From a phage, in the sequence record PX068455.1: 64,000 nt of DNA. One strand, given 5' to 3'. The position numbers were made by a program, and so were the translations under genes. Each line of letters opens with the position of its first letter. Position 1 is the stretch's first letter. Below, in pieces: positions 24,568 to 45,268 of the stretch. Below the pieces are notes generated by a model. That model was not told where the DNA came from and did not search any database. It worked only from the letters and a program-made list of their open reading frames with translations.

Positions 24568-26640
24568 TTATGAGAAGTCTGGCGGGACAACATCTTCTAC
24601 ATACCCTTTCAGAGCAACCTGCCCCATATGAAGCACGGTAGAATCTCTAGCGGTAACAGTGATGCTGTCAGACATTACTTGCGGGTATGCCCACACATAC
24701 TGTTTTACCTCAGGGTATCTATACTCTATAGTTGCCATGTTTCCGCAAATACATCTCCATAAAAATTCTTGGTAATTCCTAGTTGGGTCATAGCCATATA
24801 CCGGAGCAAGCTCTTTACTAGGAACGAACCCTGCAAGGTATTGTATTTCAGACGGTTGCCAACCTAACCTAACGATAGGTATGTTTACAGACTCTTTTGC
24901 CTTTTCAATACCTCCCTGCATCACCCAATCGTAGCACTCGGTGCAGAAGAAATCAAGAGCACCTGCTTCCTTTTTATATTGGTCAGCAAGGTTCAGCTTT
25001 TGTGTAAGCTCGGTTTCCATAATGGTTGGGAAAAACAGCAAAGCTGTCATCTGAGCTGATGCAGCGTGTGCCTTTACTGCCTTTGAAATAGCCGCAATAC
25101 GAGCGCCAAGCTTACCACGACAAAATGCCACATACTTGTCGTAAACACCGCCAGTTTTAGGATCGTCAATAGTCCCAATATCTAATGCATACTCACCTGT
25201 CTCATCATAAAACGCCTGCTTTGTAGGGTAATCATAAATACAAGGCCTACGAGTATCGGTATTGTACCACCACCACGGTTCACCAACCTGCATAATCACT
25301 GGCAGGTTGTTTCTCATAGCGGCTGATGCAAAATTCTTAAATACTGCAGTAAGGAAATTCATACCCTCTTCAATGGTTGGAGATAGGAGGTAGCTACAAG
25401 GTGTATACCCTGTTTTAGCGTAGTTATCGTTCCAGTCTCTTTGGGTCCATTCCAACGGGCAGGCATCGCTGAAAAGCTCAAAACTTACAGATTGCATAAC
25501 GTCGAAGTTATGTCGTTTGGCATTGTACATAAAATCATCATGCCATTTATAAGCTGCAGCGTTTAGCGCTCCTGTTCTGTTTATAGACCATTGGGTTCCG
25601 GACCATGTGTAGTCATAATAATGACTCATACCAACATAATGGTTTATGGTTCCGGTATATCCCAGACGCTTGATATTGTTCAACACCCTTAAAGGAGAGA
25701 CGTTCCACATATCGTCATATGCGGTGCAGATCCCAACGTCGTGCTCTCTCACCTGAATATTATTAAGTTGCATCATTTTCCAGCCTGTGTCTGGCTGAAG
25801 CAAATCTAGGCGCAACTCACACTCTACATTTTCCGTTCTCGGGTCTGTGCTATTACTTACCCAGTCTTTAGGCATGAGTGGTATTAAAATCCTTCTCACC
25901 TGCCGAGGATCAACACCCATCATGTTGTTGTTCTGGTCCATCCCGACGCAGTCCTCGAAATCAATATGAATTTCTGCAACATTCTTATCCTCTGAGATGC
26001 TGACAGCATATTGAGCTAAAGGAACATAGATGATTGTGCCATCAACAAGGTCTACAGTCATAATCATCTTTTCAGGAGTGGAGAAGTTGCTGGCGTTGGT
26101 TATTGACATTCTGAACCAAAGTTTGGTGTTTCTCATCTCATAGTGATCATCAAACCCAATACCGAAATGGTCATACTTGTCAACTGTTTCCCAAATGCAT
26201 CCAGCCATACCCCCATATGTTCTTGACACTAAACGGTTAATACAACAGTTGTTATCTGCAACAATACAGGTACTTTCAGTCTGCTGAGTAGTTGTAACCC
26301 AATATCTTGGGTGGAACATTCTCTCCTCGACAGTATCCCAAGATATCCTGTCAAGATTCTCATCTGAAACTATTGTACATTTCGCCCTTTGTGTCCCGAT
26401 CATCACCCCTTGAGATTTTGATGAAAACTCCATAAAGAAGCTTCTTGGCAACCTGTTGGGTAATTTGTCAACAATTTCCACCGGAATCTCAATACTGGTT
26501 GCCCCGACTGGGATAGTTACATCGCCCTCAACATGATCATAATCCCTACCAGGAACGGCAGTATCCTGAACTGTGCGGTAATGAAACTGCGCAGCCATTG
26601 TAGAGTAATCACGGTAAGGTTTAAAAACAGCTGTTGCCAT
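24568..26640 (-). CDS. virion structural protein, tail-fibre associated (function unknown)
   Basis: 690-aa ORF in the fibre cluster; no confident domain. Confidence 0.4.
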   Translation of the reverse strand: MATAVFKPYRDYSTMAAQFHYRTVQDTAVPGRDYDHVEGDVTIPVGATSIEIPVEIVDKLPNRLPRSFFMEFSSKSQGVMIGTQRAKCTIVSDENLDRISWDTVEERMFHPRYWVTTTQQTESTCIVADNNCCINRLVSRTYGGMAGCIWETVDKYDHFGIGFDDHYEMRNTKLWFRMSITNASNFSTPEKMIMTVDLVDGTIIYVPLAQYAVSISEDKNVAEIHIDFEDCVGMDQNNNMMGVDPRQVRRILIPLMPKDWVSNSTDPRTENVECELRLDLLQPDTGWKMMQLNNIQVREHDVGICTAYDDMWNVSPLRVLNNIKRLGYTGTINHYVGMSHYYDYTWSGTQWSINRTGALNAAAYKWHDDFMYNAKRHNFDVMQSVSFELFSDACPLEWTQRDWNDNYAKTGYTPCSYLLSPTIEEGMNFLTAVFKNFASAAMRNNLPVIMQVGEPWWWYNTDTRRPCIYDYPTKQAFYDETGEYALDIGTIDDPKTGGVYDKYVAFCRGKLGARIAAISKAVKAHAASAQMTALLFFPTIMETELTQKLNLADQYKKEAGALDFFCTECYDWVMQGGIEKAKESVNIPIVRLGWQPSEIQYLAGFVPSKELAPVYGYDPTRNYQEFLWRCICGNMATIEYRYPEVKQYVWAYPQVMSDSITVTARDSTVLHMGQVALKGYVEDVVPPDFS

Positions 26641-28933: not shown

Positions 28934-31900
28934 TTAGTCGTGAGACTCGTTCCAAGGTCCTTGGAAACTAGAGTTAGAACGGCTTACCACAACAGTAGGA
29001 CAGGATATTGCGACCCCTGTTACAGAAGACGTTGACCATGGTGTGTAGATTTCAACAACAATATCTATGGTTTGTTCACCAAGACCCGTTATCCCTACTG
29101 CACACATACCGTTGTTGTCGTTTCCGTACTTCTTACCTGCAAGGATTTGATGTCCGGCTATCCAAACGTTAAGCTGGGAGCCAGACAAGGTTCCGTTTAG
29201 TTTAAAGAAGAATGTTACGTTCTTACCTTGTCCTGAAACGTTGTCCACATATCTCCACCTCCAACGGCAAACCCTCTGCTGTGAGTTATATACTGGAGGA
29301 CAGTCACCGTAGGTTCTGTGTGCAACTATTGCACCTTCGAACTGGTTAGCACGGATAACAGAAGCTTCTACACGCCCACGAAAGGTACCTCCGGTTGCAT
29401 CTATGGTGCCCCTAAAGCTACCATTATTGGCATAAACATCCCCACGGAAGGTACCACTAGTGGCGTTAACTGCCCCTGTGAAGTTACCAGAACTGGCGTT
29501 GATGTTGCCTTTCACCCACACATCCATAAATTGGGCGTGCCCGTTCTTGTTAATATACCAACCGTATTTATGGTACCCGTTGCCATCGTAGTTGTTTGAC
29601 GAAATTTCTTGTGCGATCTTGGCAGATGAAATCGTCCCGTTCTCTATAAAAGCATCTTTCAAGAACGCTTGGTTGTTCTTGATTGCGAAAGCAAGGGTTG
29701 CTGTTCCATTTCCAGGGTTGTATACCGCAAAATTGTTTGCACTAACCATGAAGTAGGATTGAACTTGGCCTCCAGACCCTTCCATCCCCAACTGGATACC
29801 TGCAACATATTTATTCCCTGCGGAGTCTACCTGTATTTTTGTGCCCCATTGAGCATTTACTTTACCCTCTAAGTCGGTTACAGCCTTAGATGTTGTAGCT
29901 ACTGCAGCCCTGATCTCGGACACATCCCCAACATCATCAATGATCTCCTGCTTAGCAACAGCAAGTTCTTGACGAATAGCTGACGCTGTGCCGTTGATAA
30001 GGTCCACAGTAGCTTTGTTGGTATCGGAAATTGTAGCATCCAGCGCTGTTTTTGTGGAAGTCAGTTTTCCATCCAAAGCATCAATCGCCTGCTTGTTGGT
30101 AGAAATCTCCCCACGTGCAGAAGTTATCTGCTCTGACAGTGCAGATGTTTTCTGATTCAACAAGTCAGTGGTGGCCTTGTTGGTATTGGCAATCAAGGTG
30201 TTGAGGTCAGTTTTTGCGGTGGTTATCTTGCCATCCAGGGTGGTATAGTTTTTAGATACCGTCGCGTTTGTCTGACTGATCTTTTGATCCAGAGTTTCAG
30301 ATGTCCTGTTCAAAAGATCCACAGTTGCCTGGTTAGTGCTCAAGATGCTTGCGTCAAGTTCTGTTCTCTGAGTATTGATCTTACCATCCAGAGTTTTATC
30401 TCCGGCTAAATACCCGCTCTCAACTCCCTCTATCTGCTCTACCAGCTCACCTTTGGCGGCAACCAATTTCTCATCTAAAGCCTCTGTCTTTTTGTTCAGA
30501 AGATCAGTAGTTGCTTTATTGGTTGTCTCGATCAGAGATGCCAGTCTGCCACTTTCAGTGTTCAGATCGTTGGTGAATTTGTTCTGTGCAGCAACAAGTT
30601 TCCTATCCAGCGCTGTAATGTTACCATTGACATCTTCAAACTTCTGAGTTGTTTCTGTAACTACCGCACCTATTCTGTCCCCAAGTTGTTGGAACGCTTC
30701 ATCTACCCTACCATCCATGTACCTGTTAAGTTCTGTGACACGATTTTCAACCTCTTCAATAGAGGAATCCAAAGTGCTCATCAACTCTTTATAAGTTTCT
30801 GTCTTTTTGAATTCAGCATCTATCTGAGGCATCAAATCCTCAATAGAGGTATAGCAGCGTGCAGCGCATTCTACAAACTGAGAGCTACCAAAAGCGTTTG
30901 TGGTTCGAATATACCAATAATAAACCTTATCGTTCTGCAGACCTTCAGATGTCCAAGTCGAACCAACACCCATACGGGTGGCTTCTGAAGTAACGGTTGC
31001 ATCACTAGTGTCTGGCAACCTTGTCATACCAGATGTCCAAAAGTCATACTGGGTGCTTACACTTGCTAAATCCCTGCTGTGTGGAATCAAGGTGATAGCA
31101 AAGTATCCTTGCTTAACCTCTACAGAAACAGGAGCTTCAGGTGCCTGAATGTTAAACTCGCAGTACGCTTCTGGAGATACACCACCTTTATAAGATGTTG
31201 CAACCACGGTTGCTGTGTATGACCCTTTGGTCAAGCCTTCTACTCTGACAAACTGCTCAACTGTCTGTGCTGTCCAAACAATCTCTCCGTTCTTTCTTAC
31301 CTGCACAATATTTTGAGCGTAAGTTCCAACGTTGTCCCAAGCCAAAACACCGTGAGTTACTTCCCCAGCTTGGAGAACGGAGTATCTGAAGTTTTGCGGT
31401 TGAGCTACACCGGATGGGGATATCGGAATATCTACATCGCCGGAATCCGGAAGTTGCCCTGTGGCATCATTCCACTCTTTAGCATCTTGACGAAGTTTTA
31501 CCTTGACACCGCCCTTTTTGGTGAACTCCCATTCAAGAACCCTCATTTCTTGGCCCACTATACCAATACTTGGGAGATTCATTGTAACGTAACGGCCAGG
31601 TTTAAATTTAAAACCTCGCATATTGCAGGTGACTTCAATAATCCTGCCAGCTCTAGCACGTCTTAAAAATATTGCAGAAACACGCTGAGCTTGATAAGGG
31701 CTGGTAACAAAGCGGTAGTCTATATCGATTATCTTTCTTTCTCCATCCTTCTCTATCCACTCTGGGACAAACACTGATGGAAAATCTGTTTCAGAATACC
31801 CTTTGGTCGGACTGGTGAATCTGCCAGTTATTGTGTTGGATCTTTTGTCAAACGAGGCTTCCGGATAGATCTTAACCTCACCACAGACACAGTCCTCACT

Positions 31901-32773
31901 CAGTGTCATTGTTGCCGGACCATAATATGCACCTACCAGCAGTCCATACTTACCAGCTACATAGCTGAGATCTGCACCACAAGCTTTCAGCATTTCTGCC
32001 ATAATACTTGCTGGGGCCTCATCCATATCGAACTCGCCATTAATGGTGTAACGGCGCTCACTAGTTCCGTCCGCGTTTCTTACCGCCTCATCGCATATGT
32101 TAGCAGCCTCCTTGAAGGACTCCCAGTTGATGGTTTCGTCAGGACATTTAAGGTACGTTCTTAAATAGTCTAGAATCACCAAGGCCGCGTTATTGGTATA
32201 CACCTCTTTACTGATACGAGGATCATAGCATTTTTTACCAACCTTGACGAGTGTAACGTTTGGCAACCCAAAAGGGAACTTGTTAGGGTCAAACCTGAAG
32301 CTGGCACGTAGCCAACTGATCCCTCTACCTATCATGTCTGGTGACCACGACGGGCAGTGTGTACCCATGAAAGGATCAGATGTTTTTCTGTCGTTATGTA
32401 GCTCCCACGATATCAAATCTCCATACGAGGAAATAGGATTACCGTCGATGAGTATATCTTCTATACCTTCCAGGGGATGATTGGCAAGAACAATAGCACA
32501 ATGGAGGGTCCTGTCCCTGTCCTGCTCCAAAAACGCAAGTAATCCAGATGTGCGTGTCTTCCCATACACTACAGAGCAAGGTGCAGCAGAAGATCTGAGA
32601 AGCTTTTGTCTATCTTGCTGACTTCTGTAAGATTTGTTGCCCTCAAAAATCTTATCCAGAGTTCTGGTGGTAACAGTGTTCAGGCTGTCAGCCAGAGCTG
32701 CCTTGGATGCGTTCCAGTCATAACTTGAAGATCTTGCAGAAGCAACGATGTTATCAATCATTGCAATTGGCAT
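28934..32773 (-). CDS. lambda gpJ-like host-specificity / central tail fibre protein with expanded coiled-coil repeats
   Basis: 1279 aa; matches to remembered lambda J signature blocks: NNAALVILDYLRT, PEAPVSVEVKQGYFAITLIPH, YYWYIRTTNAFGSSQFVE, YVAGIQLGMEG...FMVSANNFAVYNPGNG; about 330 aa of coiled-coil repeats inserted. Confidence 0.6.
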   Translation of the reverse strand: MPIAMIDNIVASARSSSYDWNASKAALADSLNTVTTRTLDKIFEGNKSYRSQQDRQKLLRSSAAPCSVVYGKTRTSGLLAFLEQDRDRTLHCAIVLANHPLEGIEDILIDGNPISSYGDLISWELHNDRKTSDPFMGTHCPSWSPDMIGRGISWLRASFRFDPNKFPFGLPNVTLVKVGKKCYDPRISKEVYTNNAALVILDYLRTYLKCPDETINWESFKEAANICDEAVRNADGTSERRYTINGEFDMDEAPASIMAEMLKACGADLSYVAGKYGLLVGAYYGPATMTLSEDCVCGEVKIYPEASFDKRSNTITGRFTSPTKGYSETDFPSVFVPEWIEKDGERKIIDIDYRFVTSPYQAQRVSAIFLRRARAGRIIEVTCNMRGFKFKPGRYVTMNLPSIGIVGQEMRVLEWEFTKKGGVKVKLRQDAKEWNDATGQLPDSGDVDIPISPSGVAQPQNFRYSVLQAGEVTHGVLAWDNVGTYAQNIVQVRKNGEIVWTAQTVEQFVRVEGLTKGSYTATVVATSYKGGVSPEAYCEFNIQAPEAPVSVEVKQGYFAITLIPHSRDLASVSTQYDFWTSGMTRLPDTSDATVTSEATRMGVGSTWTSEGLQNDKVYYWYIRTTNAFGSSQFVECAARCYTSIEDLMPQIDAEFKKTETYKELMSTLDSSIEEVENRVTELNRYMDGRVDEAFQQLGDRIGAVVTETTQKFEDVNGNITALDRKLVAAQNKFTNDLNTESGRLASLIETTNKATTDLLNKKTEALDEKLVAAKGELVEQIEGVESGYLAGDKTLDGKINTQRTELDASILSTNQATVDLLNRTSETLDQKISQTNATVSKNYTTLDGKITTAKTDLNTLIANTNKATTDLLNQKTSALSEQITSARGEISTNKQAIDALDGKLTSTKTALDATISDTNKATVDLINGTASAIRQELAVAKQEIIDDVGDVSEIRAAVATTSKAVTDLEGKVNAQWGTKIQVDSAGNKYVAGIQLGMEGSGGQVQSYFMVSANNFAVYNPGNGTATLAFAIKNNQAFLKDAFIENGTISSAKIAQEISSNNYDGNGYHKYGWYINKNGHAQFMDVWVKGNINASSGNFTGAVNATSGTFRGDVYANNGSFRGTIDATGGTFRGRVEASVIRANQFEGAIVAHRTYGDCPPVYNSQQRVCRWRWRYVDNVSGQGKNVTFFFKLNGTLSGSQLNVWIAGHQILAGKKYGNDNNGMCAVGITGLGEQTIDIVVEIYTPWSTSSVTGVAISCPTVVVSRSNSSFQGPWNESHD

Positions 32774-33210
32774 TAATACCTCCAGACATCAACAACAATA
32801 GAATCTTTCATGTCGAACATAAAGACCCCTTTATCACCTTTCGCCCAAATCTGGTTGTTCCAGAACACACCCGCGGTGAGTCCGTTCAGTCCTTCGAAAA
32901 TAACAATATCCCCACGCTGAACCTGTTTAGGAGTGTCCAGTCGAGTCATAAAGAAATCAAAAATAGTAGGCAGGTGTGTGGTTTTGAAATGAAGCATGCA
33001 CCATCTCTTGCTTTCCAACTCTGTTTTATACGTTCCTTCGAAGTTAGAAAGAAAATCTGTTCCGTATTGGGCATCAACACACTTAGCCGCAAAGGTGCAA
33101 CAATCGTGGAATCCCCATTCAAAAGGTATGGTGGCCTCTTCGTCAAACACTTTCCACAACCTTTCTTGCCAGTCCACTAGACGAGGATGTGTGCTCATTA
33201 AACCTCCCAA
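32773..33210 (-). CDS. NlpC/P60-like protein (lambda gpK-like C-terminal half)
   Basis: 145 aa; Cys in FEWGFHDCCTFAA and His in GDIVIFEGLNGLTAGVFW in papain-like order. Confidence 0.45.
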   Translation of the reverse strand: MGGLMSTHPRLVDWQERLWKVFDEEATIPFEWGFHDCCTFAAKCVDAQYGTDFLSNFEGTYKTELESKRWCMLHFKTTHLPTIFDFFMTRLDTPKQVQRGDIVIFEGLNGLTAGVFWNNQIWAKGDKGVFMFDMKDSIVVDVWRY

Positions 33211-33764
33211 ATGATCGGGCGGCTCGCCACCTGATCCACATATTTAAAAAATCTGTCGTTATCGTTTCTTGAGCTGTGGCTTTCCTCCGTGTACCGATAA
33301 GGAAAACCTCTTAACCAGCTGTTGAAGATGGAAGAGATGGATATGGACAAAGCACTATTCTCTCCTGTCTGGATAGCCATATCTGTTATAAGGCCGTCAA
33401 ACAAGCCATTAGTTGTGACAGGCAGACCATTCTCCATAGCGGTAATGTACAACGTGGCACGACAACCAGAATACTCCGTCTTCAGCAGATCACCCACATA
33501 CTTAGGATCAAACCCGTTCAATGTTGCTACCACAGATCCGAAGTTGGTGGCATCTTTCTCAGACACAGCGGTCAATGTTGCTGATCCGCCTATCCCTATA
33601 AAATGTTGACCCTCAATTACTACAACACCAGTGCCTGAGCACACCCTGACAGTGCCTGTCGGTAGCTCCAGCTTTGCAGCAATTAAGATCTCAACACCAT
33701 CAAGCTCTAGCTTTTCAAGAAATAAATTATCTAATGGCGCTCTGATCATCTTAGAAATCCTCAA
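33198..33764 (-). CDS. tail-tip assembly protein (gpL-position), putative
   Basis: 188 aa; assignment by position only. Confidence 0.3.
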   Translation of the reverse strand: MRISKMIRAPLDNLFLEKLELDGVEILIAAKLELPTGTVRVCSGTGVVVIEGQHFIGIGGSATLTAVSEKDATNFGSVVATLNGFDPKYVGDLLKTEYSGCRATLYITAMENGLPVTTNGLFDGLITDMAIQTGENSALSISISSIFNSWLRGFPYRYTEESHSSRNDNDRFFKYVDQVASRPIIWEV

Positions 33765-34341
33765 AGAAGTTGATAACTATATTATCACCTTTTTGCATAG
33801 CATCGACTTTTTGCTTAATTTTATAAATATCTCTGATATGGAACCTACCCTTCGGGGATTGAGTTATTATCTTCATAGTGTCCCCTGCGGCAATAGGTTT
33901 TCTAAGTCTTGGAGATATGCTTATAACAGCAGACCCAACACCATCACTACGCACTGGAGCTGTTACCACTTTCAATTCATCATTGACAGATATTTTATCC
34001 CCAGCTCTGGCTATGTCTCTGTTTGGCTCCCATCCGACCGTATTCAAAAAATCGTCGTTGCCAGTAGGCCCAAGGGCGATTGGCTCATTAGCTGTTACTG
34101 AGTGACCGTAAGTTTTAATGAGAAAGATGTTCCCATCTTTATACACCTGATCAACAAAGCTTTTAAGCTCTAGCAACTGTGACTCGCTGATATTGGAGAC
34201 CGTCAAAGTGCCTTTCCAGTTAGGTGTGGCATAGGTTACTTTTTGCGTCTTACCTGTAAACGGACTTTTAAACGTAACAATATCTGCCAGCAGCTCCAAT
34301 CTAATATCTGGAAGGTATCTAGGCCTTTCCCATAAAAACAT
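33751..34341 (-). CDS. tail-tip protein (gpM-like), putative
   Basis: 196 aa; LTVSNISESQLLELKSFVDQV..G..FL weakly resembles lambda gpM core; GGAGG RBS. Confidence 0.3.
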   Translation of the reverse strand: MFLWERPRYLPDIRLELLADIVTFKSPFTGKTQKVTYATPNWKGTLTVSNISESQLLELKSFVDQVYKDGNIFLIKTYGHSVTANEPIALGPTGNDDFLNTVGWEPNRDIARAGDKISVNDELKVVTAPVRSDGVGSAVISISPRLRKPIAAGDTMKIITQSPKGRFHIRDIYKIKQKVDAMQKGDNIVINFFEDF

Positions 34342-34433: not shown

Positions 34434-34440
34434 AAAACAG

Positions 34441-37400
34441 TTACTTCAATTTCTCTTGCAATCCAGTAACAACCTCTGTCAATTTTTTAACCTGCTCCTC
34501 AAGGGCGGTTATTTTATCGTCCTGTTCCCTGCAAACCTGGACAAGCAAGCCTGTTACAGCTGCGTAGTCAACGTTATAGAACCTTTCCTCAGTCATTAAA
34601 GGAATGCCGTCTTGAGTAGGACCTTCTATTTCCTTCCTTTTCACGAAAGATCCTACTGCCTCTGGCAATGCTTCCATAACCTCTTGAGCAATCACGCCTG
34701 CATAAGGCATACCATTCTCTTTCAAGGTGTAGGTATAGCCTTTCATCTTTCTAATTGCTTCCAGAGCGTTAGGTATGACCTCTATGTTATCCTTCAGGTC
34801 CCTATCGGAACTTTGACTAACAGTAGTACATTCTACCGTGCCGTTGACAGCAAAATATCTTGATTTAGCCTCATCTGCCTTAGCACCACAGTGGAATACC
34901 CAGCTGGCGACTGTTGAGTTATCACTTATCTGAAACTCCAGCACATTCTTCCTATCTGCGCCATTACCCCAATAGTACAACCTACCTGTATTAGAAGGCA
35001 TGTTGGAAGTGTTGGTAACATCCGCACCACCACCTGTGTGTATTGTGAACTCCGGTTCAAGATTGGATCCTTGAGTTTTTAAAGTGATACCTTTACCACC
35101 AAGCTGCTGCCAATGGCCCCATGTGAAAACACCACCTATCGTTGTTCCATAACGCAGGAATTTTTCTCCAAGATATGTCGTATATTCCTGTACGCAACTC
35201 TCTGGAACGTTGGCATAGTTTCTGTAGACAACGAGAGTACCTGCCTGGGAGCATGGGTAGTTTTTATCAAGTGCGGCCTGAGCATTAGCCTCCTGATGAT
35301 AAAAACCCTCTCTATCCCCTTTGTAGTCGTTAAGGTCATTAGTCCCCAGCCCTTGACCACGGTGCTGAATAACTTTGTTCCATGCCCTATGGTTACCACC
35401 CTCGATAGATCTGGTGTATAGCTGATCAAGGCGACCAGCCATTTGGAAGGCATAGTTTCCAGAAAACGCCACAGACAGCCCACCAACAACCATCGAACCT
35501 TCAGGTCCGTTGACATTGCCTGCCATTATTTTAGAAGGGTTGTTAGGACCAAACTGGTTGTTCCAGTCTGCACCAGTATGGCATACAAAACCACCTGGAG
35601 CTGAGAAAGTACCATCCTTGTTGAAGTTGTAGAATCTATGAGCTGTGCCTACAACATCGCGAACAATAACTTGACCAGCTTCCGGAGTAGATCTGAACTC
35701 TGCCTGGCCTTTGAGACCAGCACCATTACCGCATTTAGAGGTAAACGTACCGTTAGTCAGATCCTCTGTCCCATCAGATGCACACTGGAATCCTGCATTA
35801 GAGAATAACGCCTTTCTAGGACTGCCGTAGCACAAATAGTCAAGACCGTCTGCCCATAGCTCGACTTTTGGCATATTCATTTTGCTCATCACAGCATAGC
35901 GTTCAGCAGTGCCTATATAGTGCCACTGTGTGCCGCCGCCAGTGTAGAACCCTGAAGTACCTTTAAAATCAACAATAGGTCTGGTATTGGTGTTGTTATC
36001 TCCAAGAATGGCAAGATTCAAATCTGCTGACTGAAGAGGTGCAACGAACTTAACCCCATCCTGATTGTCTGTTACAGAGCCAACCTGGTAATCTTGCTCT
36101 CTGGTAAACACTTCGACAACATTTCTACTTGCGTATATGCTGACAGGGAAAGCACGAGCCTCTACATAGAAAGCAACATACTCTTGTTTACCCCTTGTTG
36201 GAGCAACCATCCCAAGAAGTGCTTTTTCATTCTGGTAGAAATTTACTACCCCGTAGAAAGCGTCCCCTCTGTCTGTCCAACCACCAGTTCTATAGTGACA
36301 CTGTAAGGTAGCACAGTTCATAGGGTCACCGCCGGATGACGATCTGGTAACTATGGTAATATCAGTGCCAGTTGCTGGAGCATAGTACGGATCTGTTCTA
36401 ACGATAATTGGGTAGTATTTCCCATCTTCCATCCCTGCGGTTCTTGGCAGTGTTAAGAAGTCTTTTACACCTGCTGCTATAGGAACTTTGAACAGATTCT
36501 GAGCATCTGCTAAAGTTGTGGCTCCAGTACCACCTGCGGCGTGAGGTAAAGGTTCCCACTTGGCCTTCCGGTTGTTATAAACACCCCATTCCAAACTGCC
36601 GTTACCGGATTCGTCCATCCCGCCATCCCAGATAACCATCTTGGCGGCTTTCTTGGACCCCCAAAAGCCTCTTTCTGCTCCTGAACTACGGATCCACTCC
36701 CCAAGTCCCCAGTTTGTCAGCTGACCAGTAAGATCCCCAACCTGCATATATTTAGGACAGTCTAATACACCGTCCTCGCGGAAACCTAAATATCTATGAG
36801 TTTCAGATCCTTTTGCACCTTTGTGGAGGTGGATTGTCAACCAAGCCTTATTGTCGTTTCTTACCTCAGAATAGATCCTATAACCATGCTCAAGAATACC
36901 ATCAGTATTATATTTATCTCCATGGAGAATACCTGAGGCCGATTTAACATCTCCAGAGTATTGAGCTAAGTAAAGGTGCCCGAAGGCTGGCGAGTTGTTT
37001 TTACCAAGGCCGATATGAGATCTGAAAGTATCATCGTTACGAGGTCTGACCATCGGCTGCCATGCAGTCCACTGGTTTGTGTTGGCCTGATAGGTTCTCA
37101 AATACCAAACATCTACGTTAGAAAATGGATAGTATTCCTGACGACAACCTGTACCGCCGTTAGCATTGTTCTGCCAAACAATCAAGTGACCAGCACCAGA
37201 ACCTGCAGGGTAACCATTTGCCTCAGTTGCATAAGCAGTCATCGGCTGGTAGTATACGCCATCCTGATTACCAGTCAAGTTATTGATATTGAAATTTGGC
37301 TCAAGGGCTGCACGTTGCTTATAGAAAGCACCGATATTGATACGGACTCCAGCGGCATCTCTAGCCCCTGTGCCGCCTTGCTCTATAGCAAGAGGTTGCC

Positions 37401-38241
37401 ACGAAGCTGTTTGTTGGTTCCACATACCCCAACGGCCTGTTGCATCAAGCTGCAAGTACCCTGCCGTATTTAAATCATCTCCAGCACGGATAACTGTTCT
37501 TGTTGGGTTGTTTGCCTCTAGGCGTTTAAATTCATCACGAAGTGCTATTCTTTTCGTTGTTGCTACACCGTTGGTTACTGCAATGGTGTACATGGCTCCG
37601 GTGGTAGCGCCACGGAAAATACCATCAACAGTTGTAGTATCACGACGAGATACCACACCGTTCAGAAATTTTTCACCAGCTGCTACAGAAGGGTAGTTGG
37701 TAGTTCTTCCCTCTTCAATAACTGCAGGGCCAACAAAGTTATCGAGGTGAATAACATCGCCTACAGTGTGCACTGTACCAAAATCTACACGCTGTGCAAG
37801 TGCTTTGGCATCGTTAGCTGTCTGAACAGTAACATCCATTACATCCTGGACAGACTGCCCTTCGGCTGTCATGATCATAGATGCGCCAATGGTAGATTCC
37901 AGCTCCTCCCTTAATGACGGATCTGTATATACCATCCATGCAGCGTCAGTAATCCCACCATCGGAGTACGGTGAAGACAGTGCAGGAACAGTGTGTGGAA
38001 ATTCGCCTTTCCAACGTAGGTAGAGGTCTTCCTCTTCGAAGTAGGCAAAATCCATTGGGCCGTTTAACTTACCACCTTCCTTAAAGGAGATTACATGAGA
38101 AACAGTCCCATCAACATGGACAACATCGCCAATTTTTACACGACGGGTCAGGTCTGGTTGTTGAACAACCAGGTAATCATCCTCTGTCACTGCGGTAGTG
38201 GCAGGAAGAGATTCAATTCTGACAACTTTAATATCAGCCAT
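34441..38241 (-). CDS. tail fibre/tailspike with C-terminal intramolecular chaperone (peptidase S74-like) domain
   Basis: 1266 aa; C-terminal SDRDLKDNIE...GYTYTL...GVIAQEV...coiled coil matches the self-cleaving chaperone signature; N-terminal 100 aa homologous to 40876..41544. Confidence 0.65.
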   Translation of the reverse strand: MADIKVVRIESLPATTAVTEDDYLVVQQPDLTRRVKIGDVVHVDGTVSHVISFKEGGKLNGPMDFAYFEEEDLYLRWKGEFPHTVPALSSPYSDGGITDAAWMVYTDPSLREELESTIGASMIMTAEGQSVQDVMDVTVQTANDAKALAQRVDFGTVHTVGDVIHLDNFVGPAVIEEGRTTNYPSVAAGEKFLNGVVSRRDTTTVDGIFRGATTGAMYTIAVTNGVATTKRIALRDEFKRLEANNPTRTVIRAGDDLNTAGYLQLDATGRWGMWNQQTASWQPLAIEQGGTGARDAAGVRINIGAFYKQRAALEPNFNINNLTGNQDGVYYQPMTAYATEANGYPAGSGAGHLIVWQNNANGGTGCRQEYYPFSNVDVWYLRTYQANTNQWTAWQPMVRPRNDDTFRSHIGLGKNNSPAFGHLYLAQYSGDVKSASGILHGDKYNTDGILEHGYRIYSEVRNDNKAWLTIHLHKGAKGSETHRYLGFREDGVLDCPKYMQVGDLTGQLTNWGLGEWIRSSGAERGFWGSKKAAKMVIWDGGMDESGNGSLEWGVYNNRKAKWEPLPHAAGGTGATTLADAQNLFKVPIAAGVKDFLTLPRTAGMEDGKYYPIIVRTDPYYAPATGTDITIVTRSSSGGDPMNCATLQCHYRTGGWTDRGDAFYGVVNFYQNEKALLGMVAPTRGKQEYVAFYVEARAFPVSIYASRNVVEVFTREQDYQVGSVTDNQDGVKFVAPLQSADLNLAILGDNNTNTRPIVDFKGTSGFYTGGGTQWHYIGTAERYAVMSKMNMPKVELWADGLDYLCYGSPRKALFSNAGFQCASDGTEDLTNGTFTSKCGNGAGLKGQAEFRSTPEAGQVIVRDVVGTAHRFYNFNKDGTFSAPGGFVCHTGADWNNQFGPNNPSKIMAGNVNGPEGSMVVGGLSVAFSGNYAFQMAGRLDQLYTRSIEGGNHRAWNKVIQHRGQGLGTNDLNDYKGDREGFYHQEANAQAALDKNYPCSQAGTLVVYRNYANVPESCVQEYTTYLGEKFLRYGTTIGGVFTWGHWQQLGGKGITLKTQGSNLEPEFTIHTGGGADVTNTSNMPSNTGRLYYWGNGADRKNVLEFQISDNSTVASWVFHCGAKADEAKSRYFAVNGTVECTTVSQSSDRDLKDNIEVIPNALEAIRKMKGYTYTLKENGMPYAGVIAQEVMEALPEAVGSFVKRKEIEGPTQDGIPLMTEERFYNVDYAAVTGLLVQVCREQDDKITALEEQVKKLTEVVTGLQEKLK

Positions 38242-42282: not shown

Positions 42283-42960
42283 TTAGTGCGGTCCACTTGT
42301 CTCGCCATCAGGGCAAGAGTGGGTATGACCTTTATATTCTGCATAGAATGAATCCAAATCCACACCAGCAGCAGTTATAATTCTACCAGATGGGTCTATT
42401 GTGGCACCATTCATTCTGATATTTCCATCCACAGCAGCTCGCAAATTGGCAGCCCCGTTAGTGAAAGAAAACTCCCCGCTACTGTCGCACCGTAATGTCC
42501 CACCAGGTGTTTGAAGCTCAAAATCGCCAGAAGGTGTCAGTTTAAAATAAACCCTATCATTCCATAACTCTACGTTATCAGGATCGATCTGTAAAGCGTT
42601 TGAGTCTGAATGAACAGAGGTGATTGCCCACCCTGGAAACAGGCCGTGAGTTTGTTGATCGTCGTTATTGTTTTCATTTCTCTCTGAAAACTGCAATCCT
42701 ACAACATCCCCAGCCTTAATAGGAAGTGTTAACCTTGCCTTTCCGCTGTTTGCAGACATCACCTGAATTGGAACGTCATAGATAAGAGGGTATCTCTCCA
42801 CATCCCCGTCATCAAACGTGGTTTCAGCTATTGGCTGCACGGCTGCAGAAGGTATACTGTAGTCAACACTGACAACTCTGGCCCTGATACTGGTGTGATA
42901 GTCCCTCATTATTTTTTCTATAAAGGATCTTACAGCAGCATCTTTCCTATTTATTGCCAT
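42283..42960 (-). CDS. baseplate central spike, P2 gpV-like
   Basis: 225 aa; C-terminal EYKGHTHSCPDGETSGPH matches the gpV apex HTH..P.D..G.T motif. Confidence 0.6.
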   Translation of the reverse strand: MAINRKDAAVRSFIEKIMRDYHTSIRARVVSVDYSIPSAAVQPIAETTFDDGDVERYPLIYDVPIQVMSANSGKARLTLPIKAGDVVGLQFSERNENNNDDQQTHGLFPGWAITSVHSDSNALQIDPDNVELWNDRVYFKLTPSGDFELQTPGGTLRCDSSGEFSFTNGAANLRAAVDGNIRMNGATIDPSGRIITAAGVDLDSFYAEYKGHTHSCPDGETSGPH

Positions 42961-43958
42961 TATACCTCCTCAGTTTTGTCAACAACTCCACCCACTGTTT
43001 CCCCAAGGCCAAGCTCTGTAGTGTAATCACCGCCTTCTATGGTGCCCTTATGATGCACCGTGATCACCTTATAGAAGCCTGTATATTGCCTGCTTTTAAG
43101 ATAAATAGTGGACTCTGGGAGGATAGCTCCGTTAAGGCATGTGGTTACAGTAAGGCCAACATCCTCTCTCGGGTTTTTCTTTTTCTTACGTGTGCCACCT
43201 TTCGCAGCAGCTTTAGCTTTTCGCTTTTTAGCAGGTTCTGGGTTTTTAGGGGTAGGTGATCCGTGCATCCCAGACTCTGCACTTATTTCAAACACAGAGT
43301 CTTTAAACCTTTTTCCAACCTTAGTCCAATACAAAGCCCCATCCTGAACGCTAAATGTGGAGTTGGTCAGCCTTGCAAACCTGCGGAGGTTCTCTGCAGT
43401 GTTTCCAGAGAAAGCCATAGAGTATTGCAAAGTCTGGTTTCCAAAACCAACAACCCTACCTTTTGGCAAGTTCATATCCTTCAGCAGGTCATTAAGCACA
43501 GAGTTCAGAGGTGTACCTTTCTGATAAGATCTTGTGCTTTGGCACTTAATGATGTTCTCAGTGCCATCCCCAAAGATGAACTTAGTTTTTCTGGTCGGGC
43601 CTTCCCATCTGTCCTCAACAAACTCTACAGTTCCAGAGAATATCAACTGGTTCTCATTGTCATAGCCAGCCTCAAACATAACTGCAAGAGCATCAGCTTG
43701 ATGCATATCCAGATAGTTAACTGTATCGTCAGACAGGTTGTAAACTGTCACATAGCCTTTGTTTGGCTCTTTGGTATTGTCCTTTTGTATGTCAAACTCT
43801 ATATTGGCAGCACCAGTGTCCGAGCTAATCTCATAAACTCCGGAATCACTCTCTCCTTTCTTTTCAACAGATTTTGGGATATTGGTTTTTGATTTACCGC
43901 CATGCTCTACAGGACGACCAAATAATAATCGCCATGTTCTACGTCTGTACTCTGCCAT
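42960..43958 (-). CDS. putative baseplate hub protein
   Basis: 332 aa with Lys-rich linker; position between tape measure and spike. Confidence 0.35.
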   Translation of the reverse strand: MAEYRRRTWRLLFGRPVEHGGKSKTNIPKSVEKKGESDSGVYEISSDTGAANIEFDIQKDNTKEPNKGYVTVYNLSDDTVNYLDMHQADALAVMFEAGYDNENQLIFSGTVEFVEDRWEGPTRKTKFIFGDGTENIIKCQSTRSYQKGTPLNSVLNDLLKDMNLPKGRVVGFGNQTLQYSMAFSGNTAENLRRFARLTNSTFSVQDGALYWTKVGKRFKDSVFEISAESGMHGSPTPKNPEPAKKRKAKAAAKGGTRKKKKNPREDVGLTVTTCLNGAILPESTIYLKSRQYTGFYKVITVHHKGTIEGGDYTTELGLGETVGGVVDKTEEV

Positions 43959-44338
43959 TATTCTAACCCTTGCTGTTCCTTGTAAAGATCAACTGGGGTG
44001 CCGTATACAAGCTGTAGCTCGGATCTTGCTCCAAGGTTGTATCTTCCAACCCTGCCCCAATATTGATCATCTTTAAACGACAGCGCCATCAATCTACCTT
44101 TCGGTAAATCGTCTCTGTAATGCAGTCCGTCTAAGATATCTTGACAAGCTGTTACTTTTCTGGTTACTAAAGGGCTGTCACCTACCGGACCAAGGGATAA
44201 CCACCAAGACTCATCCCTCTCATTCCATTGCATACGCATTTCATATGTTTCATTGTCTAAAACAACACGCATGGTTTGATCAGGAAAGCCGTCAATGTCC
44301 CACACAAAGGTGATTATGCACCAATCTTTAAGCTCCAT
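43958..44338 (-). CDS. hypothetical tail protein
   Basis: 126-aa ORF. Confidence 0.35.
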   Translation of the reverse strand: MELKDWCIITFVWDIDGFPDQTMRVVLDNETYEMRMQWNERDESWWLSLGPVGDSPLVTRKVTACQDILDGLHYRDDLPKGRLMALSFKDDQYWGRVGRYNLGARSELQLVYGTPVDLYKEQQGLE

Positions 44339-44350
44339 TACACGCTCCCC

Positions 44351-45235
44351 TTATTTTCCGTTAACTTTGTTGTAGTTTCCCTGCTCAGATGGGACTATGG
44401 TAGAAGGTCTTCCATATTCCTGGTAATACCAATCCGCAGCAGATTGGGTAACACCGTTTTCATCTGTCCACATCATAGATTTGTATGGCTGCCACTCTTC
44501 TGCAGCATTTGTGGATGCAGTGTCTGCAAATGCCCCTGTGTCCCTCTTGTTACCTACGTTACTGCCATTCTTACAATCGTTGACAGCACCTTTTTGCTGG
44601 GTCTTGCCTACTTTCTTAGGGTTGCTGTATACAGTTGCATTAACAACCTTGTTCAAGTAGAATGTGCGGAACTCTGTAAGTTCTACATCAAACACCATCG
44701 CAGCACCTTCACCAACAGACTTGTTGGCAGAAAGACTGGTTATGATGTAGTTCTCAAGGAGCCTCTCCTCGGTAACCAAAGAAACCAACTGGCGCTTATT
44801 AATGATCTCAGTCAAAGCCTCCAGTGCAGCGCCTGGTCGCATAGATGCTGCAGGGTTTTTAGAGTCAGTATTCCTGTCAATGTAGTTTTGCTCATAGATT
44901 ATGTGTGGTGATGTATTTACCCTACCAGTAAAAGAAAATACACCATCTTTAATTACAGCGTGGTCTGACAGGGTAGATTTATCTTCCACCGCAAAATCAG
45001 TCTTATCAACAGAATGTTTGAAAGAGTAATTCTCAATCTGATCGAAGATGATGGCAAGATCGTTAGTAAAGTTTTTGCCCTTCATCTCCGTATTGCGACC
45101 ACCATAGTTAAGACCGCTGACAAACATAGTGTACTTTACATCGCTTTCAGTTTGTTGCTCTGCCTTTTCAGCCTTTGGAGATTTAACCTCTTGAGGCTTG
45201 TACAGGTCTTTTTCATCAACTATATTGCTTGGCAT
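44351..45235 (-). CDS. tail/baseplate protein following the tape measure
   Basis: Track ORF 44351..45262; ATG at 45233-45235 has a GGAGAGG RBS, whereas the -10 element lies only 7 nt from the upstream ATG. Confidence 0.4.
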   Translation of the reverse strand: MPSNIVDEKDLYKPQEVKSPKAEKAEQQTESDVKYTMFVSGLNYGGRNTEMKGKNFTNDLAIIFDQIENYSFKHSVDKTDFAVEDKSTLSDHAVIKDGVFSFTGRVNTSPHIIYEQNYIDRNTDSKNPAASMRPGAALEALTEIINKRQLVSLVTEERLLENYIITSLSANKSVGEGAAMVFDVELTEFRTFYLNKVVNATVYSNPKKVGKTQQKGAVNDCKNGSNVGNKRDTGAFADTASTNAAEEWQPYKSMMWTDENGVTQSAADWYYQEYGRPSTIVPSEQGNYNKVNGK

Positions 45236-45268
45236 AACCTCTCCAGGACACTCCGATACCATCTAAAT

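Follow-up and report, generated by a model that had tools for sequence, protein, structure and literature searches.

A predicted helical shaft of variable length in the lambda J-like tail protein of an rV5-like Vequintavirus

The DNA analyzed here (the window) is a 64,000 nucleotide (nt) phage sequence, record PX068455.1, and the segment of interest at positions 29849–30841 lies wholly within a minus-strand open reading frame (ORF; 28934–32773) coding for a 1279-amino acid (aa) protein related to the J protein of phage lambda. The segment corresponds to residues 645–975 of the J-like protein and falls within an almost unbroken predicted helix of 333 residues, located between the second immunoglobulin (Ig)/fibronectin type III (FNIII) domain and the Phage_Tail_Tip beta-prism and containing four degenerate repeat units (Table 1). 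We consider it probable that this is the alpha-helical, length-setting shaft of a lambda-gpJ-type hub and central-fibre protein, and that its alleles are exchanged as cassettes.

Single-sequence AlphaFold2 modeling places helix at residues 644–784 and 792–976 (predicted local distance difference test, pLDDT, ~65–84), and the only predicted interruption is the sequence ESGYLAG at residues 785–791. A second model, built with a 28-sequence alignment that was meant to provoke the beta-prism, still has residues 800–947 in helical form; all of these are models of monomers. The composition is biased (Thr 13.9%, Leu 10.3%, Ala 10.3%), with one Pro and no Trp or Cys in the segment. A first-pass annotation made from the sequence alone had described an expanded coiled-coil repeat array here, and the all-helical AlphaFold2 prediction agrees that the segment is helical rather than globular.

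Hydrophobic residues recur with a period of 3.62–3.64 residues (power 198; the highest value among shuffled sequences is 127), with the best single value at 3.625 (power 214), and the stripe is coherent across all 331 residues. The power at a period of 3.50 is only 2.5, and the segment is not a canonical heptad repeat; the earlier term ‘heptad-like’ is thus imprecise. Leu, Ile or Val occupies 38 of the 79 core-facing positions and 3 of the 115 outward-facing ones, and the core-facing positions are mostly of this type, with repeated layers of Thr and Asn. The autocorrelation of these three residues is highest at a lag of 11 (0.37), with 0.29 at a lag of 7, and further evidence for an 11-residue register is provided by an 11-aa insertion in unit 1 and by the 44-aa units in phage BP9. 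The shaft thus has a mixed heptad/hendecad (non-heptad) coiled-coil pattern, and in coiled-coil geometry such a pattern implies nearly straight helices.

The four units are seen at the protein level. The pattern TN[KQ]AT[TV]DL[LI]N has exactly four matches, as the first-pass annotation had counted, at residues 751, 813, 864 and 918 (30494–30523, 30308–30337, 30155–30184 and 29993–30022) and with spacings of 62, 51 and 54 aa; the number expected by chance from the segment’s own composition is ~1e-7. When aligned, the units share a common LDGK...TNxATxDLLN...L frame and are 34–50% identical. Mean BLOSUM self-scores, judged against 300 shuffles, peak at offsets of 105, 54, 167, 113, 51 and 62 (z 4.9–6.8), which are the three core spacings and their sums, and each of the six lies above anything reached in the shuffles. 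The expected periodicity in a self-comparison is therefore found, although a self-blastp of the shaft segment gives no off-diagonal matches.

The corresponding DNA repeats are less regular. They were described previously as imperfect repeats of 160 bp, and in-register identity is indeed raised (47–50%, compared with 28.5 ± 4.9% for random in-frame pairs, a difference of ~4 standard deviations), but the spacing is 186, 153 and 162 nt and the similarity is weak. Tandem Repeats Finder, applied to 29000–32000, reports nothing in 29849–30841, and a general repeat search of the DNA gives only low-identity fragments of 15–27 nt. The DNA repeats are old and weak, and too degenerate for slippage.

The protein itself is well placed. 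In DNA, the J gene region matches those of Escherichia phages ECP2303 and ECP2309 at 100% identity, and those of rV5 and numerous further Vequintavirus genomes at ~96%; by sequence, the source phage is an rV5-like Vequintavirus and the ORF product the orthologue of rV5 gp37, a lambda-J-type protein. gp37 has been found in rV5 virions by proteomics (PMC3606486). The J-like identity given by the first-pass annotation is strengthened by Pfam matches to Ig_J_second (PF24489, 1.9e-30) and Phage_Tail_Tip (1.2e-38), by a PHROGs match to phrog_31 ‘central tail fiber J’ (1.1e-163, spanning residues 143–1118), and by solved lambda gpJ chains, which align on either side of the shaft at residues 547–678 and 956–1048 and leave 277 residues between them with no lambda counterpart.

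The shaft is clearly expanded relative to lambda. Between the YYWYIRTTN block (residues 618–626) and the WGTKIQVDSAGNKYVAGIQLG block (residues 976–996) there are 349 aa in the window protein and 69 aa in lambda J; the contrast of about 330 and about 45 aa that had been noted is thus real, with the lambda value understated. Measured by hidden Markov model (HMM) domain boundaries the linkers are 336 and 56 aa, and that of Seurat is ~120 aa. We also surveyed 66 sequences with both flanking domains, including lambda J and the window protein, in which the linkers range from 56 (lambda) through 84, 110 and 142 aa up to ~550 aa of low-proline helical sequence, reaching ~2500 aa in giant J-family proteins that probably carry extra domains. 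The 336-aa linker is mid-range among these. Linker lengths in the family cluster at 56, 84 (56 + 28), 110 and 142 aa, which suggests stepwise addition of helical units family-wide. A search of 151 diverse J-family sequences with the 44-aa unit HMM finds it only in Vequintavirus J, plus two single weak matches; the TN-core unit is thus lineage-specific and confined to Vequintavirus, and its copy number is therefore not comparable more widely.

Within Vequintavirus the copy number does vary, as the first-pass annotation had anticipated. There is a 3-core allele (CarlMeissner/Murica/LL12/FFH2-type J, 1199 aa, 43 records), a 4-core allele (rV5-type J, 1279 aa, ~60 records) and a 6-core allele with an additional 14-aa insertion (BP9/ECML-10-type J, 1381 aa, 13 records), and a search with the unit HMM identifies 3, 4 and 6 units in the respective proteins; phage Aya has a 4-core mosaic allele. 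The core spacings across the alleles are 44, 47, 51, 54 and 62 aa, corresponding to 12, 13, 14, 15 and 17 helical turns of 3.63 residues each and to no whole number at 3.5, and every allele therefore keeps the hydrophobic stripe in phase. We note that many GenBank records in the series MG065635–MG065690 are labeled ‘Campylobacter phage’ (host Campylobacter jejuni) and have 90–99% DNA identity to the J gene. All three shaft alleles are represented among these records, which suggests an erroneous host label or mixed samples.

On sequence comparison, the length variation lies between old and deeply diverged recombination cassettes. Shaft DNA is 45–70% identical between alleles and its third codon positions 26–57% identical, with the flanks at 95–98%, and third positions are saturated even where the shaft protein is fully conserved. 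One example is the comparison with CarlMeissner, in which the blastn alignment ends at 30785 and resumes at 29989 (breakpoints at residues 664 and 929), the cassette 29990–30784 being replaced by 555 nt in CarlMeissner-type phages. Across the 34 kb tail module, collinear identity of at least 94% among the window, CarlMeissner and BP9 is broken only by the shaft and by a second allelic cassette (~34439–35322), which is the distal end of the neighboring 1266-aa Peptidase_S74 fibre (34441–38241). The shaft alleles assort independently of this fibre-tip cassette and of the type of the J C-terminal domain; no linkage is seen between shaft and neighboring fibre tip, the window-type tip being present with both 3- and 4-core shafts.

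In a length survey of the 120 best-scoring proteins from a 5.8-billion-sequence collection, 119 are 1279 aa long and one is 1280 aa, and their shafts are 99.6% identical to that of the window. We rejected a slippage-prone tandem array (a variable number tandem repeat or contingency locus), given the low DNA identity of the units, the blank Tandem Repeats Finder result and this constancy of length; the locus is not such an array because there are diverged cassettes in near-identical flanks and a single length within the 4-core class.

We propose that three chains would pack as a parallel three-stranded coiled coil, by homology to the shafts of lambda gpJ and the F-type pyocins, and that the coiled coil would be nearly straight because its period is near 3.6. 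At ~0.15 nm per residue it would form a rod of ~50 nm that keeps the hub at a distance from the beta-prism and the C-terminal domain at the far end. Its length would be altered by whole repeat units, whose gain or loss would keep the stripe in phase, and the rods would measure ~38, ~50 and ~65 nm for the alleles with 3, 4 and 6 cores respectively. Old cassettes would be swapped by homologous recombination through the conserved shaft caps, rather than being made by replication slippage.

Several points weigh against this interpretation. The single-sequence model has a predicted template modeling score of 0.23 as well as the break at residues 785–791, and a fold-back or kink there could shorten the rod. 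When the alignment is supplied, residues 891–951 (29921–30103) fall from a pLDDT of ~55–81 to below 50. The trimeric, parallel packing and the length of the rod are argued by homology, and the ‘fibre length or reach’ of the first-pass annotation would follow from the geometry of that rod. The phage has its own tube initiator, hub and gpV-like spike (see below), so that the place of the J-like protein on the tail axis is uncertain and any reach may not start at the center of the baseplate. Finally, no phenotype is linked to any of the shaft alleles.

An unlikely alternative is that the shaft is mainly a docking mast, in which conserved units or the Gly-containing kink anchor other rV5 fibres; the copy number would then determine not the reach but how many docking sites there are or how far apart they lie. 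A precedent is provided by the F-type pyocins, in which the side fibres attach at a kink in the shaft at G955 (PMC13455828), and ESGYLAG is the only predicted helix break in the window’s shaft. Moreover, residues 813–850 (30224–30337) are 100% identical in protein to BP9 with only 47% of third codon positions matching. This constraint between 4- and 6-core alleles far exceeds that on the rest of the shaft and goes beyond a simple helical pattern. The Vequintaviruses also have approximately nine proteins annotated as fibres, and for most of these the mode of attachment has yet to be described (PMC12143355, PMC8594841). However, ESGYLAG is shared by the 4- and 6-core alleles but missing from the 3-core allele, as is the unit containing residues 813–850, and 43 phage records thus have neither. 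The shaft alleles also do not co-vary with the sole other variable fibre cassette in the tail module, and there is no direct evidence of an interaction.

We regard as very unlikely a fold switch, in which all of the shaft, or at any rate its final part, would be a metastable coiled coil that converts to beta-prism on receptor contact, storing energy or opening the tip. An F-pyocin fibre (25vf_A) shows homology to the last ~100 shaft residues together with the beta-prism, and switches of this kind are predicted by He et al. for numerous central fibres of siphophages (PMC12874032), although lambda and T5 are without an extensive switch (PMC12874032). Residues 954–966 (29876–29914) change from helix in the single-sequence model to strand in the 28-sequence model and, with the loss of confidence at residues 891–951, give a weak hint of conformational ambiguity beside the beta-prism; these are monomer models only, and residues 800–880 are confidently helical when the alignment is used. 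The Thr content of the shaft is unusually high. Three of the four matches to the switch-associated pattern SxSxxMxxLxS are within residues 921–974, but over the whole shaft the pattern is not enriched (4 observed, 3.2 expected, P = 0.40). In addition, the phage has a contractile sheath (phrog_205), and this source of energy would not be needed. For most of the shaft a switch is thus unsupported by either the motif or the models, but it may apply to the last 25–85 residues.

A chance or low-complexity effect devoid of structural meaning, which the biased composition and the nearly blank DNA repeat searches might favor, is vanishingly improbable given the four exact 10-residue matches, the self-similarity and in-register DNA identity, the recovery of 3, 4 and 6 units in the allelic proteins, and a protein identity of 99.6% in genes ~96% identical in DNA. 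A chance origin of the repeats is ruled out by the shuffle controls.

The positions of the shaft, its units and the surrounding features are shown in Table 1.

Table 1. Features of the J-like protein gene and of the genes immediately upstream of it
Feature	Coordinates	Strand	Residues	Basis or remark
J-like hub / central-fibre protein gene	28934..32773	-	1279 aa	rV5 gp37 orthologue; phrog_31; Pfam Ig_J, Ig_J_second, Phage_Tail_Tip
N-terminal hub-domain region	31136..32773	-	1-546	57% identity to Seuratvirus J proteins
Two Ig/FNIII-like domains	30818..31297	-	Ig_J 493-545; Ig_J_second 547-652	Pfam
Alpha-helical shaft	29846..30844	-	644-976	AlphaFold2 helix; hydrophobic stripe
Conserved N-terminal shaft cap, EDLMPQIDAEFKKTETYKEL	30782..30841	-	645-664	sequence comparison
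Variable shaft cassette	29990..30784	-	~664-928	blastn breakpoints vs CarlMeissner
Repeat unit 1, core TNKATTDLLN at residue 751	30428..30559	-	739-782	unit HMM, regular expression, unit alignment
Helix break / possible kink, ESGYLAG	30401..30421	-	785-791	AlphaFold2 DSSP (construct residues 186-192); pLDDT <50
Repeat unit 2, core TNQATVDLLN at residue 813	30242..30373	-	801-844	unit HMM, regular expression, unit alignment
Repeat unit 3, core TNKATTDLLN at residue 864	30089..30220	-	852-895	unit HMM, regular expression, unit alignment
Repeat unit 4, core TNKATVDLIN at residue 918	29924..30055	-	907-950	unit HMM, regular expression, unit alignment
Phage_Tail_Tip beta-prism domain	29483..29905	-	957-1097	Pfam PF09327, 1.2e-38
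C-terminal distal domain, two allelic types	28937..29473	-	1101-1279	sequence comparison
Three genes upstream of J: Dit-like 33751-34341, tail protein 33198-33764, DUF6950 32773-33210	32773..34341	-		PHROGs phrog_1302 ‘distal tail protein’, phrog_2048; Pfam DUF6950

The hub region is 98–99% conserved across the three shaft alleles and weakly matches pb3, the baseplate hub of T5 (8hqz/7zhj, E 2e-4). The Ig/FNIII-like region, in which the Ig_J match (PF24421) is below the Pfam cut-off, aligns with lambda gpJ residues 716–844, and the N-terminal shaft cap is identical or near-identical in all Vequintavirus alleles examined and is also present in Seurat J. At the other end the first ~20 residues of the Phage_Tail_Tip domain overlap the end of the shaft, and Foldseek matches the beta-prism best to the central tail fibre of lambda (8xcj/8xci, E 3e-10). 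The C-terminal domain differs by 4.5% in protein between the window and CarlMeissner/BP9, which are the same as each other, and among the 119 four-core proteins 93 have the window type and 26 the other.

The minus-strand J frame is under strong purifying selection, with ~96% DNA identity corresponding to 99–100% protein identity. There are also plus-strand antisense ORFs of 90 and 100 aa at 30375–30647 and 30686–30988. The J orthologues are variously named in the records as tail fiber protein, central tail fiber J, tip attachment protein J, lateral tail fiber protein with fibronectin type III domain, and ‘omp-alpha outer membrane protein alpha precursor’; this final name is probably an artefact of coiled-coil similarity.

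The Dit-like, phrog_2048 and DUF6950 genes are immediately upstream of J, as in the J-family layout, and together with J their products are 32%, 40%, 44% and 54% identical, respectively, to those of the collinear tail-tip genes of siphophage Seurat (L005 3271–7970). Among the matches listed outside Vequintavirus for the N-terminal hub region in a sampled ranking of the phage collection, all are in smaller genomes, led by the siphophage genus Seuratvirus. When the PDB was searched by sequence, neither the Dit-like protein nor the 188-aa protein had a meaningful match. In the region 42283–45262 there are genes for a myovirus tube initiator (44351–45262) and a baseplate hub (phrog_196, 42960–43958), as well as for a 225-aa protein that is annotated as a central spike / P2 gpV in CarlMeissner and BP9, and two hub-type proteins therefore coexist in one phage. 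BASEL annotates the J-like protein as a lateral fibre. Elsewhere in the window, a 690-aa protein (24568–26640) has domains of the N4 gp65-like non-contractile tail sheath type (PF23845, 1.1e-80) and contains a GMSHY motif that a 2026 preprint links to NGR glycan binding.

A broader proposal, that rV5-type myoviruses have co-opted a complete siphovirus tip module beside their own tube initiator, hub and spike, with the long shaft serving, instead of as a passive spacer, as a mast for some of the ‘Swiss-army-knife’ fibres or as a spring-loaded beta-prism switch like that of F7 pyocin, tuned by the 3-, 4- and 6-unit cassettes, strikes us as quite unlikely. A Seurat-like tip module in the fibre cluster of a myovirus with its own hub may be of greater value than the repeat array, and it bears on how many-fibred phages are constructed.

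The shaft is a feature to be expected in a known family, and it leaves the general picture of phage tails unchanged. It does provide a natural experiment, with three shaft lengths in tail modules that are otherwise 94–97% identical in DNA, which could show the effect of J-type fibre length on adsorption through O-antigen or capsule layers. The conserved shaft caps also represent ready-made junctions for engineering of fibre length.

The closest structural parallels are with lambda gpJ and the F-type pyocins. In lambda gpJ an alpha-helical shaft (AHS) lies between FNIII-2 and the beta-prism (PMC11101478), and the order of hub domains, two FNIII/Ig domains, helical shaft, beta-prism and distal domain (8iyk, 8xci, 8xcj) is the same as in the window protein. 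However, the lambda shaft is ~50 residues compared with 333 and is without TN-x-x-T-x-DL-x-N units, and lambda is a siphovirus with gpJ as its axial tip, whereas the window phage is a myovirus that has separate genes for a hub and a spike. In the F-type pyocins (PyoF10 of F2 and the F7 central fibre) a long three-stranded coiled coil likewise precedes a Phage_Tail_Tip-type beta-prism, a packing that would apply to the window protein by homology. The F2 pyocin fibre 25vf_A aligns to residues 873–1078 (E 2.8e-17), with the homology extending ~100 residues into the window’s shaft. The pyocin shaft differs in being ~160 residues long, in having an insertion domain and a side-fibre docking kink, and in its proven switch of a coiled coil into a beta-prism with SxSxxMxxLxS, the pattern that is not enriched here. 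It is an extended three-stranded structure that anchors three side-fibre trimers at the glycine kink (PMC13455828), and in the F7 pyocin a 163-residue coiled coil refolds into beta-prism and drives puncture (PMC12874032).

Among the matches listed outside the genus, the Seuratvirus J proteins (Seurat, CAjan) are the closest for the N-terminal hub region, and whole-protein blastp to Seurat J gives 54% identity over residues 48–758 and 50% over residues 869–1124. The two share the shaft caps, and in both phages the genes run Dit / tail protein / DUF6950 / J, but the ~120-aa Seurat shaft is without TN-core repeats, and the window protein has ~215 extra residues between the caps. Other hendecad-containing trimeric coiled coils are the stalks of trimeric autotransporter adhesins and Thermotoga Omp-alpha, which are repeat-built rods with periods greater than 3.5 and with core Thr and Asn residues; the window’s shaft shares only coiled-coil physics with these, and not homology.

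Our literature searches found no paper on the allelic shaft series or on the shared Seurat-type module. The RBPseg atlas describes J-type ‘tail needle’ fibres (TC3/4/9) with coiled coils of varying length and a Vequintavirinae fibre class, TC5, with ‘large coiled-coil domains’ in AlphaFold-multimer models (PMC12143355). The TC5 fibre has the same layout as the window protein, with a beta-sandwich-rich, central-fibre-like N-terminus, a large coiled coil and a beta-helical C-terminus; it may be the gp37 orthologue, and the passages of the atlas consulted do not describe the repeat units, the 3.63 period or the 3/4/6-core series (PMC12143355). The shaft is an instance of an element already described, since coiled coils that are large and of variable length are on record for J-type and Vequintavirinae fibres (PMC12143355), and the repeat anatomy, the 3.63-residue periodicity and the series of 3-, 4- and 6-core alleles are incremental additions to it.

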